In this document: positions 5,393 to 60,757 of the stretch, piece after piece
Layout: the number at the start of each line of letters is the position of its first letter
Position numbering within the stretch: position 1 is the first letter of the stretch
Assembly (NCBI GenBank): GCA_016839275.1
Contig: JAEOUM010000117.1
Coordinates: forward strand, 63,861-127,860
Source: Candidatus Thorarchaeota archaeon
GTDB taxonomy: Archaea > Asgardarchaeota > Thorarchaeia > Thorarchaeales > Thorarchaeaceae
Length of the DNA stretch: 64,000 nucleotides
Direction of reading: 5' to 3'
Translations under genes and position numbers: made by a program
The notes under the pieces: model-generated
What the model saw: only the letters and a program-made list of their open reading frames with translations
Database searches by the model: none
What the model was told of the DNA's origin: nothing

Positions 5393-7420
5393 ATGGGCGA
5401 TGAAAGTGTATTCATTATAGGCTTTGATATACTACCTTCACACAGTCCTGGGGCTAGATCTGCTCCAAAATTCGCATGTGTAATAATGAGAGATGGAGTA
5501 ATTCTGAATGAATACCCAGAAATTTCTCGTGGTGCTCTATTAAAGATAGTCAAAACAATAGCACCAAAGTGGTTCTGTACCGATAATATCTTCGAGATAG
5601 TCCCTGATAGTAAGTCGTTATTTCAACTGGCAAGTCGTATTCCCAACGAAACAAGAATTGTTCAGGTGACAGGGGTTCCACCACATCAAATTCAGCTCAA
5701 GACTTTAGCTCGTCGTCATGGCATAAACATACGAGGAAAGCCAAGCGCTCTAGAGTCAGCAGCAATCGCCGCTCAACTGGCATCGAAAGGCATTGGTCAT
5801 TCATTAGAGTGTTTCAGTGAACAGACCGAGATCAAAGTGACTCGAGCTCGGAAACCTGGTAGTGGAGGACAGAGCGCCAATAGATACAGACGTAGAATTC
5901 ATTCCGAGATTCAACAGATGACACGATTTATTGAATCTCAGCTCAAAGCTGCTGAAATCGAGTATGATATAGATGTCCGTAATTCTGATTTTGGATACGC
6001 AAGTGCACGTCTTATCACAAATGCACCTCTCCCAGTAATTCGAAACAAAATAGATGCCAAGAGGGGCGGTGACTTCAATATTCTGATTTCGCCTGTTCGT
6101 AAGCGTGTCGAGTTCATGCCTCTTGAACCTATGACAAATCTTTCCGAAATTAAGCCAAAATACTACATACTTGGAGTTGATCCTGGAATAACTGCTGCAT
6201 ACTGTCTTTTGTCTTTAGACGGTAAGGTAAAGGTTCTGAAAAGTAGGAAAGGGCTAACTAGAGCGGATATGATACGCGAGGTCTATGAGACCGGTATTCC
6301 AGTTATGCTGGCTTCTGATGTTCCACAAGCACCTCACTTCGTTGAGAAGATAGCAAGTACAGTCAATGCAATAGTGTATACTCCTGCAAAAGCTATTCCC
6401 GTAGCTGAAAAGCAAGAGCTTGCACGGTCATATGCCAATCACATCAGAGTTCGTAATGCTCACGAGCGAGATGCGTTAACCGCAGCTATCTATGCATTTA
6501 GATCAGTCCTGCCAAAATTGCAGCAGATTGATCGTATGATAAAGGAAGAGCAACTCACGGTTGATCGAAACCATCTGAAGGCTCTCGTGATTAAAGGCAC
6601 CCCTATTAATGAGGCTCTGGCGAGTTTGGAACGTTCAGGTGCAGAGATTGTGGAAACCATCCCAGTAGAACAACCGGTTCAACCATCTGAGGAGAAACTG
6701 ACACAAGAGCGGTTCGATGCTTTAAAAAATCGCTTTGAGCAGATAGAGGATGAAAATCAGGTCCTAGCAGAAAGAGTAGAGGATCTCATACGATTTGTAG
6801 AATATCTCAAGTTCAGAGAAAGTGAGCTTGAGCATAGTCTTGAGATAGTTACTCAGAACAACTACTGGAGAATAAAACGTGACAGAGAATTGGAGAAATC
6901 AAAATCTTCGCTTAAGAAAGCTGAAGCAGACATTATCAAACTTCGAAAACAAGAAGCAACAATGAAGAGTAGACTAGAGCTTCTCAAAGGTGTCAAGCGT
7001 CTTGAGATGCGCGGTGATATGTTAGCTGTGAAAGTGATACCTCATTTCACCCGAGAGAGTGTAGAGGAGTACAATCATAAGGTTGGTTTGAAAGCTGGTG
7101 ATATTATCCTATTTGAGGACGCCTCAGGTGGAGGCCTACAGACTGCAGGACTATTAATTGAAAAACAGATTCGTGCTGTTGTTGTTGACACTCCGCTCTC
7201 ACATCTTCCAAGAGAAGAGCTTGTACGAGCTCTCATACCGATTATTGATGCAAAAGAAGTGGATTTACGACGAATTGATGAATTTGCCTTCATTAGTCGG
7301 AAAAAGTTTGAGAGTGTCCTTCAATCATTCATCAAGGATGTGCGCGAACAAGCTAGACAGAAGGGTGAGGAACAACTAGTACAACTGATTGAACGATACA
7401 AACGAGAGATAGAACGTTAG
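5393..7420 (+). CDS. Conserved archaeal protein with two RNase H-fold (RuvC/YqgF-like) segments and a long coiled coil (COG2433/DUF460-like)
   Basis: IIGFDIL at the N-terminus and YILGVDPGITAAYCLL (RuvC/YqgF-like) mid-protein; strongly coiled-coil C-terminal third. Confidence 0.5.
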   Translation: MGDESVFIIGFDILPSHSPGARSAPKFACVIMRDGVILNEYPEISRGALLKIVKTIAPKWFCTDNIFEIVPDSKSLFQLASRIPNETRIVQVTGVPPHQIQLKTLARRHGINIRGKPSALESAAIAAQLASKGIGHSLECFSEQTEIKVTRARKPGSGGQSANRYRRRIHSEIQQMTRFIESQLKAAEIEYDIDVRNSDFGYASARLITNAPLPVIRNKIDAKRGGDFNILISPVRKRVEFMPLEPMTNLSEIKPKYYILGVDPGITAAYCLLSLDGKVKVLKSRKGLTRADMIREVYETGIPVMLASDVPQAPHFVEKIASTVNAIVYTPAKAIPVAEKQELARSYANHIRVRNAHERDALTAAIYAFRSVLPKLQQIDRMIKEEQLTVDRNHLKALVIKGTPINEALASLERSGAEIVETIPVEQPVQPSEEKLTQERFDALKNRFEQIEDENQVLAERVEDLIRFVEYLKFRESELEHSLEIVTQNNYWRIKRDRELEKSKSSLKKAEADIIKLRKQEATMKSRLELLKGVKRLEMRGDMLAVKVIPHFTRESVEEYNHKVGLKAGDIILFEDASGGGLQTAGLLIEKQIRAVVVDTPLSHLPREELVRALIPIIDAKEVDLRRIDEFAFISRKKFESVLQSFIKDVREQARQKGEEQLVQLIERYKREIER

Positions 7421-10027: not shown

Positions 10028-11383
10028 ATGTCTAACCATCTCTCTATCTCTGAGATGAGCCAAAAAACAAGTAGTATTCCCTCCTTAAAGACACTAGAGA
10101 AAGACTGCAGTTCTGTGAATCTTGATAGTGATAGTCAAATCCTTCTAGTGACATCTCCAATTCCAGAGGCAACACTTGCTACTGCTATTTTATCTAGAGC
10201 ACTTGTAAGGCTAAACAGGAGGTTTCAATTGACCTTTGTTCAACCGGTAATGGCTCTAGATGCATTTAATGAACTAAGGACCAGACACGACTCCTCAACA
10301 ATCATCACAATTGGTGTTGATTTCCTCGGGTCAAAAAAAGTCAAGAAAGGCAAGAGATCCTTAATCCTAATCGGAGGGATATCAGAATCAGAGCAATTAA
10401 GCGCACTTACGTTAGGAACTGACGCCACTCTGACTCCAGTTACATATCTCTTGTCCAAATCACTGATAGATGTTGGTTCTTATGATTTACAGCTTGCAGT
10501 TGCAGGCGTGCTAATCCATGATGGCCCGAACGGACCTAAGAAGGGAGCAAGCAGAGACATAATAAATTTGGCTGAAAAGGAGGGATTGGTTGAAGAGCGG
10601 AAAGGATTCAGATTGTTTGGCGTAGGAATGTTGCCACTTGATGAAGCTCTTCTTCACAGTACACATCCTTACCTTCACACAATAAGTGGAAATCAAAAAG
10701 CCTGTGATGAACTTCTAATTGCTGCAGAGATACCTGTTCAGAAACTACGACTACCCCTGAACAACCTGAATACCTCAGAGGCTCAGCGACTAGCATCACA
10801 CCTCATTACACGATTGAATCCAGAAGTAATCTCACTTCTCCTGGGTAAGGATCACCTACTCAAACTCGAACGCGAATCTAGTCCAATGAGATACATTTCC
10901 GGTGTTGAAATCATTGCTAATACTGCATGGGCAAGGAACGAATTGGGCACATCGATGAGTGTATGGTTAGGAGATAGAGGACTAGCACTGAGAGTTCTAA
11001 TCGACACTCATATGAACCATCATAAGGATGTCATCTCTTCAGTTCAGAGGCTTGACGCAGGATTGATTGGGGAGTCTACTTCTTCTGCAACAGCTTTGAA
11101 GATACCTGGATCAAAGACTGAGGTATTACCTGATGTAGGGAGGATTGCTCTGAGTAATAGGCTTGTTGATTCTGATAAGACGCTCGTATTGGATAACACG
11201 GAGTCTTATACCATAATCTGGCCATTTTCCAGTCTTAACACCAAACAGGTTCTTCGTGACCTGCTGAAAAAAGCCATTCTCCCTATCACCTCATCGTCTC
11301 AATCTGTAACCATTCATCATAGTCCTGAGATGAAGGAAGCAGTACTTCAAATGATTTCAAACACAGGCAAGGTCGGCGACTAA
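10028..11383 (+). CDS. Degenerate DHH/RecJ-like protein (possible inactive Cdc45/RecJdbh-type)
   Basis: Downstream of rps15, where archaea usually encode RecJ/GAN. DHH motifs appear present but mutated (LLVTSPIPEATLATAILSRAL in place of the DxD motif I; ITIGVDF in place of DHH). Confidence 0.35.
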   Translation: MSNHLSISEMSQKTSSIPSLKTLEKDCSSVNLDSDSQILLVTSPIPEATLATAILSRALVRLNRRFQLTFVQPVMALDAFNELRTRHDSSTIITIGVDFLGSKKVKKGKRSLILIGGISESEQLSALTLGTDATLTPVTYLLSKSLIDVGSYDLQLAVAGVLIHDGPNGPKKGASRDIINLAEKEGLVEERKGFRLFGVGMLPLDEALLHSTHPYLHTISGNQKACDELLIAAEIPVQKLRLPLNNLNTSEAQRLASHLITRLNPEVISLLLGKDHLLKLERESSPMRYISGVEIIANTAWARNELGTSMSVWLGDRGLALRVLIDTHMNHHKDVISSVQRLDAGLIGESTSSATALKIPGSKTEVLPDVGRIALSNRLVDSDKTLVLDNTESYTIIWPFSSLNTKQVLRDLLKKAILPITSSSQSVTIHHSPEMKEAVLQMISNTGKVGD

Positions 11384-15072: not shown

Positions 15073-15160
15073 GCGGAGGTTGCCCAGCCTGGTTAAAGGC
15101 GCAGGGTTTAGGTCCCTGTCTCGTAGGAGTTCGCGAGTTCAAATCTCGCCCTCCGCACCA
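15073..15160 (+). tRNA. tRNA-Leu(TAG), class II, with encoded CCA
   Basis: Manual fold gives acceptor GCGGAGG/CCTCCGC, 3-bp D stem, anticodon stem CAGGG/CCCTG with loop TTTAGGT (anticodon TAG), long variable arm, T arm GCGAG-TTCAAAT-CTCGC, discriminator A. Confidence 0.8.
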
Positions 15161-15342
15161 TTTTAATACAATTTTGGCATTTATTAGATATTCATCTTAT
15201 CATCGTAACGTTCTTATAATTGTTTGATTTTGCACATATTTCGCGGCATTTCTGGGAGGTAATGACTAGCTACATCTCTCCAGAGAGGATGTTTTTGAAT
15301 TCATCCTAATGTCGTAGTATATGGGTAGGAGTAACGACAAGA

Positions 15343-15687
15343 TTGAAGCAGAAGGTAGTTTGTCCTCATTGTGTCAAGGAAAAGCATACTATAGAAACAC
15401 ACGTGGTCGACGGCTTGGAAACCGTGAAAAATACTGGCAAGGCAAAATGGCATCCTCTTCTAAAAAAGGAATCAGAGGAGGTTTGGCAAAGGGATATTTC
15501 AATTGGTCTTGGCATCGAATGCAAGTGTGGAAGAACCTTCTTCGTCTTTAACGTCATGAATGAGAACTCATTGAAAGTATCGCCCGAATTGAGTGATAAT
15601 TTATTCAGTCCAGCGTACTGTATTCAGTGTCGCTCAGCTTTTGTTTCTCAAGACCTCGTCTGTCCTACTTGTAATAAAAAATGTTAG
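15343..15687 (+). CDS. Double zinc-ribbon protein with TTG start; the first gene inside the tRNA-Leu-flanked insert
   Basis: CPHC...CKCG...CIQC...CPTC; sits between tRNA-Leu and its 3'-end repeat. Confidence 0.35.
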   Translation: MKQKVVCPHCVKEKHTIETHVVDGLETVKNTGKAKWHPLLKKESEEVWQRDISIGLGIECKCGRTFFVFNVMNENSLKVSPELSDNLFSPAYCIQCRSAFVSQDLVCPTCNKKC

Positions 15688-15700
15688 AGAGTGTGGTTGT

Positions 15701-17248
15701 ATGTCTGAATATCGCGTAGGTCCACCTGGTTGGCAAGCACCGAATCTGACTCCGAGAGAAACGGTTGTTTGCTGGGAGATTGAGGAAGGCGTTAAGGAAC
15801 AGTACAATAGACTAAAAGGATATTGGGAGTTGGGTGAATTGACACGCCCCTCACTGTATGAGATTATCTGGCAGGACAAAAAATCCTCTCTTGTTCCCAA
15901 GCTTTCTTTTATACCAGTAACGAGAGCTTATGGTTTCAATATCAACATTCTTCAAAGATCTTTTCCAGATGATAGAATCGATCCTATCTACTTCCTTCAC
16001 AAGGGATTTACTCCAAAGGATAGAAGGGTCATATTTACCGCAACCGAAACCGGAATGATTCTGGACTTTCCATCTCCTGTCGGTCTCATTTTAAAAAAGC
16101 GTGTATCATTTCAGCACCCCCACTTCGAATATCAGCTCCTCGATATGGCTGATGGAACACTTCCTTCTTCCCAGAACCCTCTCATTGCTCAAATAGAAAA
16201 AGAAATTGATCATAGTAAGAGAATTACTGATGATGAGTCTTCGAAGCTGATTGCGTGTGTTAATGGTCTTCAAGACGAAGAAAAATTTGAACTTTTTAAA
16301 TTCGCCCCTTACAAGTTTAAGTACCCAGCATATGCAGCAATCATCCCTTACATGGAAAAGACCATCATTTTTGCATCTAGCTTGAACACAACTTCGAGTT
16401 ATGGGAACCGTCACAAGGGTGGTATTGCTAAACTTCGTATTGAAGAGGATAATGATGCCACCGACTATGAGATTGCTCTTCCTGGTGGATCCCTCAGCGC
16501 TTACTATCTCGTTAAGCTTCTTTCAGCTGTAACAGAAGCTAATAGAGCTAGTAGTCCTATCAGCGTAATCCATCCTGAAAATCTGGGAACTCTTGGTGTC
16601 TTTCTTACTGTAGAAGCCACAAGACGTATAGTAGATCCAAGCTCATCAGAACTATCCTTGCATGAGATTTACGGTACCGCTCCCACTGAGAGACTTGGTA
16701 TTCTAGGTCGGTCTATTAATTTAGCAGTATTTCCCAAGAAACCTGTTAAAGAACTCCCAGAATTGAATATAGATTGGCATGACTCACCTCTTACTGAAAC
16801 TATTTGGAAGTCTATTAATCCACGTGTTCCTCTGGATTTTGCTGATAGTGTAAAATGGGAGGTTACTACTATAGAAGGCTCAGCTGACGAAGGCGTGGCC
16901 AAGGTCCGAACAGAAGTAAAGAACTCTTACCTGCACAATATCCTGAAGTGGAGTCAATCTTCAGAAGGAACAATGGAACAGTTTGAAACTATTAGGACAA
17001 ACATTGAAACACAAGGAATGGGAACCGGCGAACCACTTAGTGGTATATATAATGGCCACAATGCCCAGTACGTTCAAGGCTTTATAATCCAAAAGAATGT
17101 ACCAACAATCATTACTGCTCGCCTTCTGCATTGTGAGAACAGGAGTATGAATCTAGTCTGGATTTTATCTTGTTCCGCTCGTTCAAAATCAGAGGCTGAA
17201 GCGGGATGTAGCTATGGGACCGGCTTAATTCGCTGTCACGAATCTTAA
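15701..17248 (+). CDS. Hypothetical 515-aa protein (ORF track opens at 15593); the second gene of the insert
   Basis: Long ORF with no recognisable motif; ends a few nt before the tRNA-Leu 3' repeat. Confidence 0.4.
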   Translation: MSEYRVGPPGWQAPNLTPRETVVCWEIEEGVKEQYNRLKGYWELGELTRPSLYEIIWQDKKSSLVPKLSFIPVTRAYGFNINILQRSFPDDRIDPIYFLHKGFTPKDRRVIFTATETGMILDFPSPVGLILKKRVSFQHPHFEYQLLDMADGTLPSSQNPLIAQIEKEIDHSKRITDDESSKLIACVNGLQDEEKFELFKFAPYKFKYPAYAAIIPYMEKTIIFASSLNTTSSYGNRHKGGIAKLRIEEDNDATDYEIALPGGSLSAYYLVKLLSAVTEANRASSPISVIHPENLGTLGVFLTVEATRRIVDPSSSELSLHEIYGTAPTERLGILGRSINLAVFPKKPVKELPELNIDWHDSPLTETIWKSINPRVPLDFADSVKWEVTTIEGSADEGVAKVRTEVKNSYLHNILKWSQSSEGTMEQFETIRTNIETQGMGTGEPLSGIYNGHNAQYVQGFIIQKNVPTIITARLLHCENRSMNLVWILSCSARSKSEAEAGCSYGTGLIRCHES

Positions 17249-17254
17249 AGATTT

Positions 17255-17288
17255 GAGTTCGCGAGTTCGAATCTCGCCCTCCGCACCA
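17255..17288. repeat. 34-bp direct repeat of the tRNA-Leu 3' end (33/34 identical to 15127..15160); att-like
   Basis: GAGTTCGCGAGTTCGAATCTCGCCCTCCGCACCA matches the tRNA-Leu T-arm/acceptor/CCA. No matching 5' acceptor strand upstream, so it is not a complete tRNA. Confidence 0.7.
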
Positions 17289-17592
17289 CTTCTTCAAGAT
17301 GCGTTTTATTCCTCTTGTGACCTTTTCGAGTGATTTGCTCTACTATGATGTATGACAGTTTGAACATGACTGTAATGGAAGTTGACCACCACTAAAGAAA
17401 AAGTGAATCCCTAAAAATGCGACAAATCCAATGACTGCGATCACAATGACAACTACTAGTACTTTCAGTAATTTATTCATGAGGCTCAAATTCTAAAAAT
17501 ATTTCGATGTCATTTTTTATAAATCCATTACTATTCATTTTCTGTCGTAATCCTCATTATGTTCTTTGCTTTTCAGCTACCTGTGAAATATA

Positions 17593-49144: not shown

Positions 49145-49337
49145 TGTATGTACCCATCCTTTGTGGTAATAGATTCGCTTTGTTTGTGGTTCAGCCTCAA
49201 AGGCCACATCCCGCGCGGACGTATCCGCCAATACAAAGGAATGGTCTGGTCAGGCACTAGTGCCATGACCAGATACACCCGAAATGATTTGCTTAAAGAT
49301 GTAACGTTTTGTCTGTTCAAAGCGAAGACTGAACAAG

Positions 49338-60472: not shown

Positions 60473-60601
60473 TGGTAGCGGGCGGAAGATTTGAACTTCC
60501 GATCTCAGGGTGCCTCCGAGTGCAAGACTCATATGAGCCCTGCGGGATAGGCTTTGCCCGTCTGCAGAAAATCCGCAGACGACTGGCTTCCCCAGCCCGC
60601 T
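60473..60601 (-). tRNA. tRNA-Met(CAT), initiator-like, with two introns (canonical 37/38 and D-loop) and encoded CCA
   Basis: Reverse complement gives acceptor AGCGGGC/GCCCGCT (A1:U72), discriminator A, anticodon stem CAGGG/CCCTG with three G:C pairs, loop CTCATA|A interrupted by a 20-nt insert after position 37, T arm GGAAG-TTCAAAT-CTTCC. About 33 extra nt with hairpin GTCTGC-GGATTTTCT-GCAGAC lie in the D-loop region. Confidence 0.65.
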
Positions 60602-60757
60602 TTACTTAAATGTTTGCTTAACCAAAGACGAATGAGAACCAATTGCCCAAATCCGCCAAGGTTAGAGGGAAGAGGGCAGTTGCGAGTTTTAAAGTTATTC
60701 GTAGGACAGGTCTGTGGGATGCCTGTCGATATTGGTTTGCTTTTTCAATGAACGTGA

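Follow-up and report, generated by a model that had tools for sequence, protein, structure and literature searches.

Two small introns, one of them in the D-loop, interrupt a predicted initiator tRNA-Met gene of a Thorarchaeota-like archaeon

Introduction

Initiator tRNA is essential and is usually encoded by a single-copy gene. The locus considered here, 129 nt on the minus strand (60473–60601, read from 60601 to 60473) of a 64,000-nucleotide stretch of DNA that we call the window, raises the question of whether such a gene can be interrupted twice and, if so, where its transcript would be cut. A sequence-only reading, which gave no strand, had seen in it an initiator-like tRNA-Met with one insert of 20 nt after position 37 and another of about 33 nt in the D-loop, and had taken this arrangement as informative for lineage. 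The archaeal splicing endonuclease recognizes a 4-bp helix with a 3-nt bulge on either side (the BHB motif); the first two anticodon bases join this central helix, and relaxed forms of the motif, hBH and HBh′, exist (PMC4090602). Here, we delimit both inserts by comparison with orthologues, ask whether their flanks have the geometry of endonuclease sites, and weigh the readings under which the inserts would not be spliced, or not at these positions.

Results

The initiator tRNA gene and its exons

With the introns in outer brackets, the minus strand of the gene reads AGCGGGC UG GGGA AGCCAG [UCGUCUGCGGAUUUUCUGCAGACGGGCAAA] GCCUA UCCC G CAGGG CUCAUA [UGAGUCUUGCACUCGGAGGC] A CCCUG AGAUC GGAAG UUCAAAU CUUCC GCCCGCU A CCA. 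Exon 1 (60583–60601; tRNA positions 1–18, AGCGGGC through AGCCAG) supplies the 5′ strands of the acceptor and D-stems and the D-loop through G18. Exon 2 (60532–60552; positions 19–37, GCCUA through CUCAUA) contains the CAU anticodon. Exon 3 (60476–60511; positions 38–73), recognized in part by the match of its T-arm to the Rfam tRNA family, supplies the 3′ strand of the anticodon stem, the variable loop AGAUC, the T-arm GGAAG UUCAAAU CUUCC, the 3′ acceptor strand GCCCGCU, and the discriminator A73. The 3′ CCA is read directly from the genomic sequence (60473–60475) and is included in the 129 nt, a length given correctly in the earlier reading.

With both inserts removed in silico, 79 nt remain, and ARAGORN identifies this product at default settings as tRNA-Met(CAT); when the D-loop insert alone is removed, the same program reports a tRNA-Met with a 20-nt intron in the anticodon loop. 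A1:U72 and the three pairs G29–G31:C39–C41 are marks of archaeal and eukaryotic initiators. Both can be read from the sequence (AGCGGGC...GCCCGCU and CAGGG/CCCUG), so that the claims of a canonical tRNA with an initiator-type acceptor and anticodon stem after insert removal, of a CAU anticodon, and of an initiator-like tRNA-Met carrying two introns all hold. The 129-nt RNA folds with a z-score of −5.15, and 0 of 200 shuffles fold as well.

The unspliced gene was missed by ARAGORN both at default settings and with anticodon-loop introns allowed, and by Rfam at the gathering score (29 bits for RF00005); under a lenient Rfam threshold, the T-arm alone matches, at 13.2 bits. The RF00005 failure is expected given 50 nt of introns. 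An orthologue without introns (L121) scores 62.1 bits on the same model, and two orthologues that carry the 37/38 intron alone (L129 and L132) likewise fall below its threshold. ARAGORN run with introns allowed and a lowered threshold placed a 31-nt "intron" at 33/34 in a fold that made no sense and was discarded. NCBI assembly GCA_016840785.1 and a JGI metagenome also contain the sequence of the window, and the gene-call tables for these two copies have no gene called over the tRNA. ARAGORN and Rfam searches found no second initiator gene within the 64-kb window. Group I and group II introns have a catalytic core of hundreds of nucleotides; at 30 and 20 nt, and with no Rfam intron matches, the inserts were rejected as self-splicing introns of either group. 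At the level of sequence, the locus is thus confirmed as a genuine archaeal initiator tRNA-Met gene interrupted by two small introns of a presumably protein-spliced kind; initiator function, that is, charging with Met and use by aIF2, is predicted.

Boundaries and geometry of the D-loop intron

A metagenome scan anchored on the D-arm GGGGAAGCC...CTATCCCGC, with 3–37 nt allowed between the anchors, recovered 44 loci. The D-loop insert is present in half of them and absent from the other half, where the gene reads GGGGAAGCCAGGCCTATCCC. The insert-free orthologues used to place the junctions were L129/L157, L132/L143, and L133. An additional locus, L149, shares every exon and the 37/38 intron base for base with L129/L157, its sole difference being a 31-nt insert at the same point as the D-loop insert of the window. 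Because of the insert-free genes, and because L149 amounts to L129 plus an insert, the boundaries are unambiguous: the D-loop intron, UCGUCUGCGGAUUUUCUGCAGACGGGCAAA, spans 60553–60582 (minus strand) between G18 and G19 and is 30 nt long rather than about 33 nt. The junction cannot slide, because the terminal intron bases (U and A) differ from the adjacent exon bases (G and G). Excision gives the D-loop AGCCAGGCCUA, numbered A14 G15 C16 C17 A17a G18 G19 C20 C20a U20b A21.

The flanks of this intron form a relaxed HBh′ motif, a class assigned because there is no outer helix. Its bulges are AG^U and AA^G (^ marks the cut), and its central helix consists of C17-G, C16-G, and G15-C plus an A14·A mismatch. 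The inner helix comprises 10 bp; the "perfect 6-bp hairpin" noted previously does exist, but it is only the core of this longer helix. Across 12 distinct introns at the 18/19 site, six pairs of the inner helix have changed on both sides, a level of covariation reached by 0 of 500 shuffles, and pairing stands at 84% as against 27–46% with the partners slid. The intron therefore combines relaxed-HBh′ geometry with junctions that restore a normal tRNA. No other copies of the D-loop intron, which would be a sign of mobility, were found in the window, the intron itself being the sole match.

The central helix is conserved in the clade and is unable to covary there, because its exon side is fixed. 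Among 64 distinct thaumarchaeal introns at the 18/19 site, exon C16 always stands opposite G, and U16 stands opposite G or A; C opposite A was never seen (Fisher p = 0.006, uncorrected for phylogeny). This correlation between exon position 16 and the intron supports a central helix formed between exon and intron.

The 37/38 intron

The canonical intron, UGAGUCUUGCACUCGGAGGC, occupies exactly the 20 nt after position 37 that the earlier reading had proposed (60512–60531, minus strand). It lies in a full hBHBh′ motif with bulges UA^U and GC^A. Three of the four positions of the central helix are paired (C32-G, U33-A, and C34-G, with an A35·G mismatch), the outer helix is the 5-bp anticodon stem, and the inner helix, GAGU/ACUC, has 4 bp. 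In 11 homologous introns of 20–22 nt, 93.7% of cells in this BHB are paired, compared with 24–48% when the strands are slid. The motif is thus a canonical BHB whose cuts restore a 7-nt anticodon loop. A derivation of this intron as a tandem duplicate of the 3′ exon was considered and dropped as too weak (9/16 identities by eye).

The cut rule that we took from PMC4090602, cleavage after nucleotide 2 of each 3-nt bulge around the 4-bp helix, falls exactly on both junctions in the window. It also fits every D-loop, anticodon-loop, and T-loop intron junction derived by comparison in the relatives. When the sequence was scanned blindly with the BHB rule, 14 candidate site pairs came up, and shuffled versions gave about 11. 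The rule by itself is therefore unspecific; our junction calls rest on orthologue comparison, and the rule serves as a consistency check. The predicted exon-exon junctions are GAAGCCAG^GCCUAUCCC and GGGCUCAUA^ACCCUGAG or, in a second rendering, GGGGAAGCCAG^GCCTATCCC and GGGCTCATA^ACCCTGAGA.

A mosaic of introns among orthologues

Initiator genes of this clade carry from zero to three introns, and those with three reach 176 nt. D-loop introns occur at three adjacent sites: 17/17a in L046, L113, and L140, with a central helix GAAG:CUUC; 18/19 in the window and 16 loci; and 19/20 in L073 and L148, with a central helix GCCA:UGGC. Their central helices differ, and excision at any of the three restores the same D-loop. 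An apical hairpin, CGGAUUCGUYCCG, is common to the 17/17a intron of L113 and the 18/19 introns, which suggests that they may be one intron whose cut sites have shifted by two bases. Some orthologues carry T-loop introns of 30–33 nt at 56/57, 57/58, or 59/60 (L124, L126, L127, L131, L133–L138, L142, L145, L154, and L164). The closest relative of the window, L133, shows 83–95% amino acid identity in the neighboring genes; its initiator gene has the 37/38 intron and a T-loop intron and no D-loop intron.

Upstream element and leader

A 21-nt element, CTACGAATAACTTTAAAACTC, lies at 60684–60704 (minus strand), −103 to −83 from tRNA position 1, and contains the TATA-like TTTAAAA (60687–60693). A search of the window at up to three mismatches gives a single occurrence, with 0 expected, and an identical 21-mer is found upstream of the initiator gene in about 25 related loci. 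We regard it as a putative promoter. One relative, L135, has a second exact copy of the 21-mer at 5929–5949 (minus strand), about 2 kb from its initiator gene.

The distance from the 21-mer to tRNA position 1 is about 30 nt in many relatives. The window and about 10 relatives have a partial copy of the tRNA's 5′ end about 30 nt from the 21-mer; this copy is followed by a conserved stretch of about 45 nt and then by the full tRNA. Comparison of upstream regions places the copy of the window, which is decayed, at 60645–60657 (minus strand; GGCGGATTTGGGC); it is intact as AGCGGGTTGGG in L123, L144, and L159. The 25 nt that adjoin the tRNA (60602–60626, minus strand) are conserved and end in ...TTTAAGTAA, and a conserved motif ...GTTTGNTCAAACAANNGTTTAAGTAA follows the partial copy and abuts position 1 within the region 60602–60704. 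Upstream regions with both a leader and a partial duplicate include those of the window, L123, L131, L144, L146, and L159. From the position of the TATA-like sequence, the transcript is predicted to start with a 5′ leader of about 60 nt (60602–60665, minus strand). The duplicated 5′ end was considered as the mark of a further BHB intron, and no register with at least three central pairs was found. Because no BHB forms between the two copies of the 5′ end, RNase P, whose p30 subunit is encoded in the window, presumably takes off the leader of about 60 nt. A pairing between leader and trailer (TTTAAG/CTTAA), present in some relatives only, forms no BHB and was set aside.

An alternative fold of the precursor

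Calculated with nearest-neighbor energies, the minimum-energy fold of the precursor lies at −63.1 kcal/mol, and the splicing-competent fold, at −52.9 kcal/mol, is 10 kcal/mol worse. The minimum-energy fold is not the cloverleaf. It sequesters the anticodon stem: exon G26–C34 pairs with bases 2–10 of the 37/38 intron, and the 3′ strand of the stem is taken up by intron CUCGG. These pairings reflect the makeup of the intron: its 5′ half, GAGUCUUGC, can base-pair with C32–C34 and the 5′ strand of the anticodon stem, and complementarity to the 3′ strand resides in its 3′ half, CUCGG. The resulting two-hairpin fold (60512–60552, minus strand), in which each intron half pairs with one strand of the stem, is splicing-incompetent.

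In the same 11 homologous introns, the two-hairpin fold is paired in 98.7% of cells versus 93.7% for the BHB. It shows a compensatory double change from A28:U to G28:C, and the loop bases of the BHB fold show only changes that preserve two-hairpin pairs. The two-hairpin fold is also 5–12 kcal/mol more stable than the BHB in most 37/38 introns of the clade; there is almost no energy difference in L125, L140, and L147 and in about 40 of the 68 anticodon arms tested, which are mostly thaumarchaeal. On this modeling, the alternative fold could be either a selected switch or a relic of how the intron originated. That the 37/38 intron controls maturation of the initiator tRNA, either by switching conformation or by antisense pairing with the anticodon arm, is an idea that we put forward as speculative and rather improbable.

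Gene neighborhood and lineage

The gene order at the locus is Spt4, S24e, a zinc-ribbon protein, a 419-amino acid protein, and then the tRNA, and in at least 13 of the metagenome loci S24e, Spt4, or both lie no more than about 3 kb from the tRNA. The window also encodes the housekeeping proteins CTP synthase, PCNA, primase, GINS, eL15, S3Ae, and S15, in addition to RNase P p30. In a genome scan that used one genome per species and looked for inserts between positions 13 and 28 of the initiator gene, the matches listed include about 100 Nitrosopumilales/Thaumarchaeota, eight Thermoplasmata, one member of the Methanomassiliicoccales, three Thorarchaeota (L046, L073, and L113), two Hermodarchaeota, one member of the Promethearchaeia, one of the Bathyarchaeia, and three DPANN-like genomes. 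A further hit, L096, was a bacterial false positive. Among the matches listed, the D-arm of the window is common only to the three Thorarchaeota, and an encoded CCA is found in all of the thor-, hermod-, and prometheoarchaeial relatives.

An insert in the D-region of the initiator gene is therefore widespread and, taken alone, is not diagnostic of lineage, contrary to what had been supposed at the outset. Exon sequence and gene neighborhood point to a Thorarchaeota-like Asgard archaeon, an assignment based on the similarity of the tRNA to that of three genomes labeled Thorarchaeota.

Discussion

It is very likely, in our view, that the locus is a functional initiator tRNA(CAU) gene of a Thorarchaeota-like Asgard archaeon whose transcript loses a leader and two EndA-excised introns to become a 79-nt tRNA. 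This explanation is built on the sequence, the exact junctions, the conservation of structure, and the presence or absence of introns among orthologues, and from these we infer transcription, EndA cleavage, and ligation of the precursor. Transcription from the conserved upstream promoter would yield a precursor with the leader of about 60 nt and both introns. EndA would then cut at four sites, inside the 3-nt bulges that flank each 4-bp helix; recognition at the D-loop would involve pairing of exon G15–C17 with intron GGC in the relaxed HBh′ motif. A ligase of the RtcB type would join the three exons, and trimming of the ends by RNase P and a 3′ nuclease would give the 79-nt tRNA, CCA included, with the D-loop described above.

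The relaxed motif in the D-loop means that an EndA of broad specificity would be needed. An endonuclease of relaxed specificity for this site is supported by analogy with the literature: Asgard EndA, that of a Thorarchaeote included, is of the (αβ)2 type with an L1 loop according to Kaneta et al. (2018; PMC5829648). A Pfam scan found neither EndA nor RtcB among 30 open reading frames of the window. Against our explanation stand the lack of an outer helix and the A14·A mismatch in the D-loop motif, and the energy advantage of a precursor fold that hides the anticodon stem.

Three other readings would take the inserts, or the gene, out of this pathway. The locus might be a decaying pseudogene or a redundant copy, its inserts never removed and initiation served from another gene. 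Standard tRNA finders do miss it, the decayed partial duplicate of the 5′ end indicates that the locus has been rearranged, and the predicted minimum-energy fold differs from the cloverleaf. Yet all exon positions needed for the cloverleaf and for initiator identity are intact, the locus, promoter element, and introns are conserved in many divergent relatives, whose intron helices show compensatory changes, and the window holds no other initiator gene, all of which makes decay or redundancy very improbable. It is still harder to credit that the D-loop insert is never excised and forms an extra arm in the mature RNA, a tRNA with an expanded D-loop. A stable 10-bp hairpin is all that speaks for retention. 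G18 and G19 dock on the T-loop, and the insert separates these two invariant bases; it is also absent from close relatives, the nearest (L133) among them, and it has the same bulge-helix geometry as accepted archaeal introns.

The remaining reading accepts excision of the D-loop insert but places the cuts elsewhere, as in the insert of about 33 nt first proposed, or has the site recognized through a local hairpin, GGGC-AAA-GCCU, across its 3′ junction. RNAalifold favors this hairpin in its consensus, where it shows one double change from G-C to A-U, in L156/L160, and in the thermodynamic ensemble the pairs G15-C51 and C16-G50 have a higher pairing probability than those of the central helix. 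Other boundaries are opposed by the finding that only excision of 30 nt gives the D-loop of the orthologues, at a junction that cannot slide. The hairpin, for its part, would put the 3′ cut at a loop-stem junction, a geometry at which we know of no action by EndA, and the thaumarchaeal correlation between exon position 16 and the intron favors the central helix. We consider this reading highly unlikely and retain the excision of 30 nt through the HBh′ motif.

One of the closest known parallels lies in the Nitrosopumilales, whose initiator genes have a D-loop intron at the same 18/19 site with the same flanks, AAG(C/U)CAG^G(C/U)C, the same central-helix logic (exon A14–C17 with intron GG/AC(U/A)), and the same 3′ junction, GGGC(A/U)A(A/G)^G; a 37/38 intron is often present as well. 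Their introns are 11–19 nt long with an inner helix of about 2 bp, whereas that of the window has 30 nt and 10 bp, and their initiator genes lack the encoded CCA that the window gene has. The shared site could reflect either common descent or convergence forced by the same exon bases. Introns of 11–19 nt between G18 and G19 occur in about 100 of the listed Nitrosopumilales species, the complete genome of Nitrosotenuis chungbukensis among them. In Thermoplasmata, the initiator gene has a well-formed BHB insert nearer A21 that, read by eye, has a central helix CAGG:CCUG and AAA bulges; Thermoplasmata are usually credited with an EndA of strict specificity.

Several small introns in one tRNA gene are known from other archaea. 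TACK archaea have multi-intron tRNA genes with non-canonical introns in the D-, V-, and T-arms (PMC3082918 and PMC4090602); tRNA-Pro(UGG) of Pyrobaculum islandicum, for instance, has introns at 25/26, 37/38, and 56/57 (the same two sources). As in the window, individual tRNA genes of Thermoproteales and Caldiarchaeum carry several small BHB, HBh′, and hBH introns, and their EndA is of the (αβ)2 type; the window gene differs in phylum (Asgard-like), in tRNA (the initiator), and in site (18/19). Disrupted initiator genes have also been described: that of Nanoarchaeum equitans is split and that of Thermofilum pendens is permuted, both at 37/38 and the latter also at 59/60 (PMC3218864). They too are rebuilt by BHB-dependent processing, whereas the window gene is colinear, in one piece, and merely interrupted twice. 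Closer to the proposed lineage, 92–95% of the tRNA genes of Atabeyarchaeia and Freyarchaeia have introns, many of them non-canonical, and more than half have several (PMC11291895). Multi-intron tRNA genes of Asgard archaea are therefore already known, and the window gene is a further, precisely delimited example; the passages of PMC11291895 and PMC5829648 considered here give no account of this gene, its junctions, or the variation of sites among orthologues.

Because ARAGORN and Rfam miss the two-intron initiator gene, genomes of the clade will appear to lack an initiator tRNA. The exact junctions, together with intron-bearing and intron-less orthologues, provide a test set for tRNA finders, and the same orthologues could be used to probe which substrates Asgard EndA accepts. 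The neighboring sites that form a mosaic in the initiator gene are relevant to the gain, loss, and shifting of tRNA introns in archaea, a matter of interest for where the tRNA-splicing system of eukaryotes came from, and a family with three D-loop and three T-loop sites would suit the study of intron sliding, gain, and loss in archaea related to eukaryotes. Were the two-hairpin fold under selection, it would let the 37/38 intron control maturation of the initiator tRNA.

Other features of the window were observed in passing. A 37-nt direct repeat (15127–15163 and 17255–17291, plus strand; 35/37 identical) corresponds to the 3′ end of tRNA-Leu(UAG), CCA included, and its copies flank 2.1 kb, in which a 551-amino acid open reading frame (15593–17248) had no Pfam or PHROG match. 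The repeat is probably the att scar of an integrated element. A weak tmRNA/tRNA-like Rfam match at 17211–17288 was considered as a second disrupted tRNA and rejected as a gene; it arises because the second copy of the tRNA-Leu 3′-end repeat lies there. The box C/D sRNA family sR14 is weakly matched as well (11092–11155, plus strand; 22.4 bits, below the gathering score of 38). The Rfam leader "eL15-Euryarchaeota" matches at 49183–49228 (minus strand) with 48.1 bits, just upstream of the eL15 gene; given the Asgard affinity suggested by the tRNA, the leader family may extend outside the Euryarchaeota.
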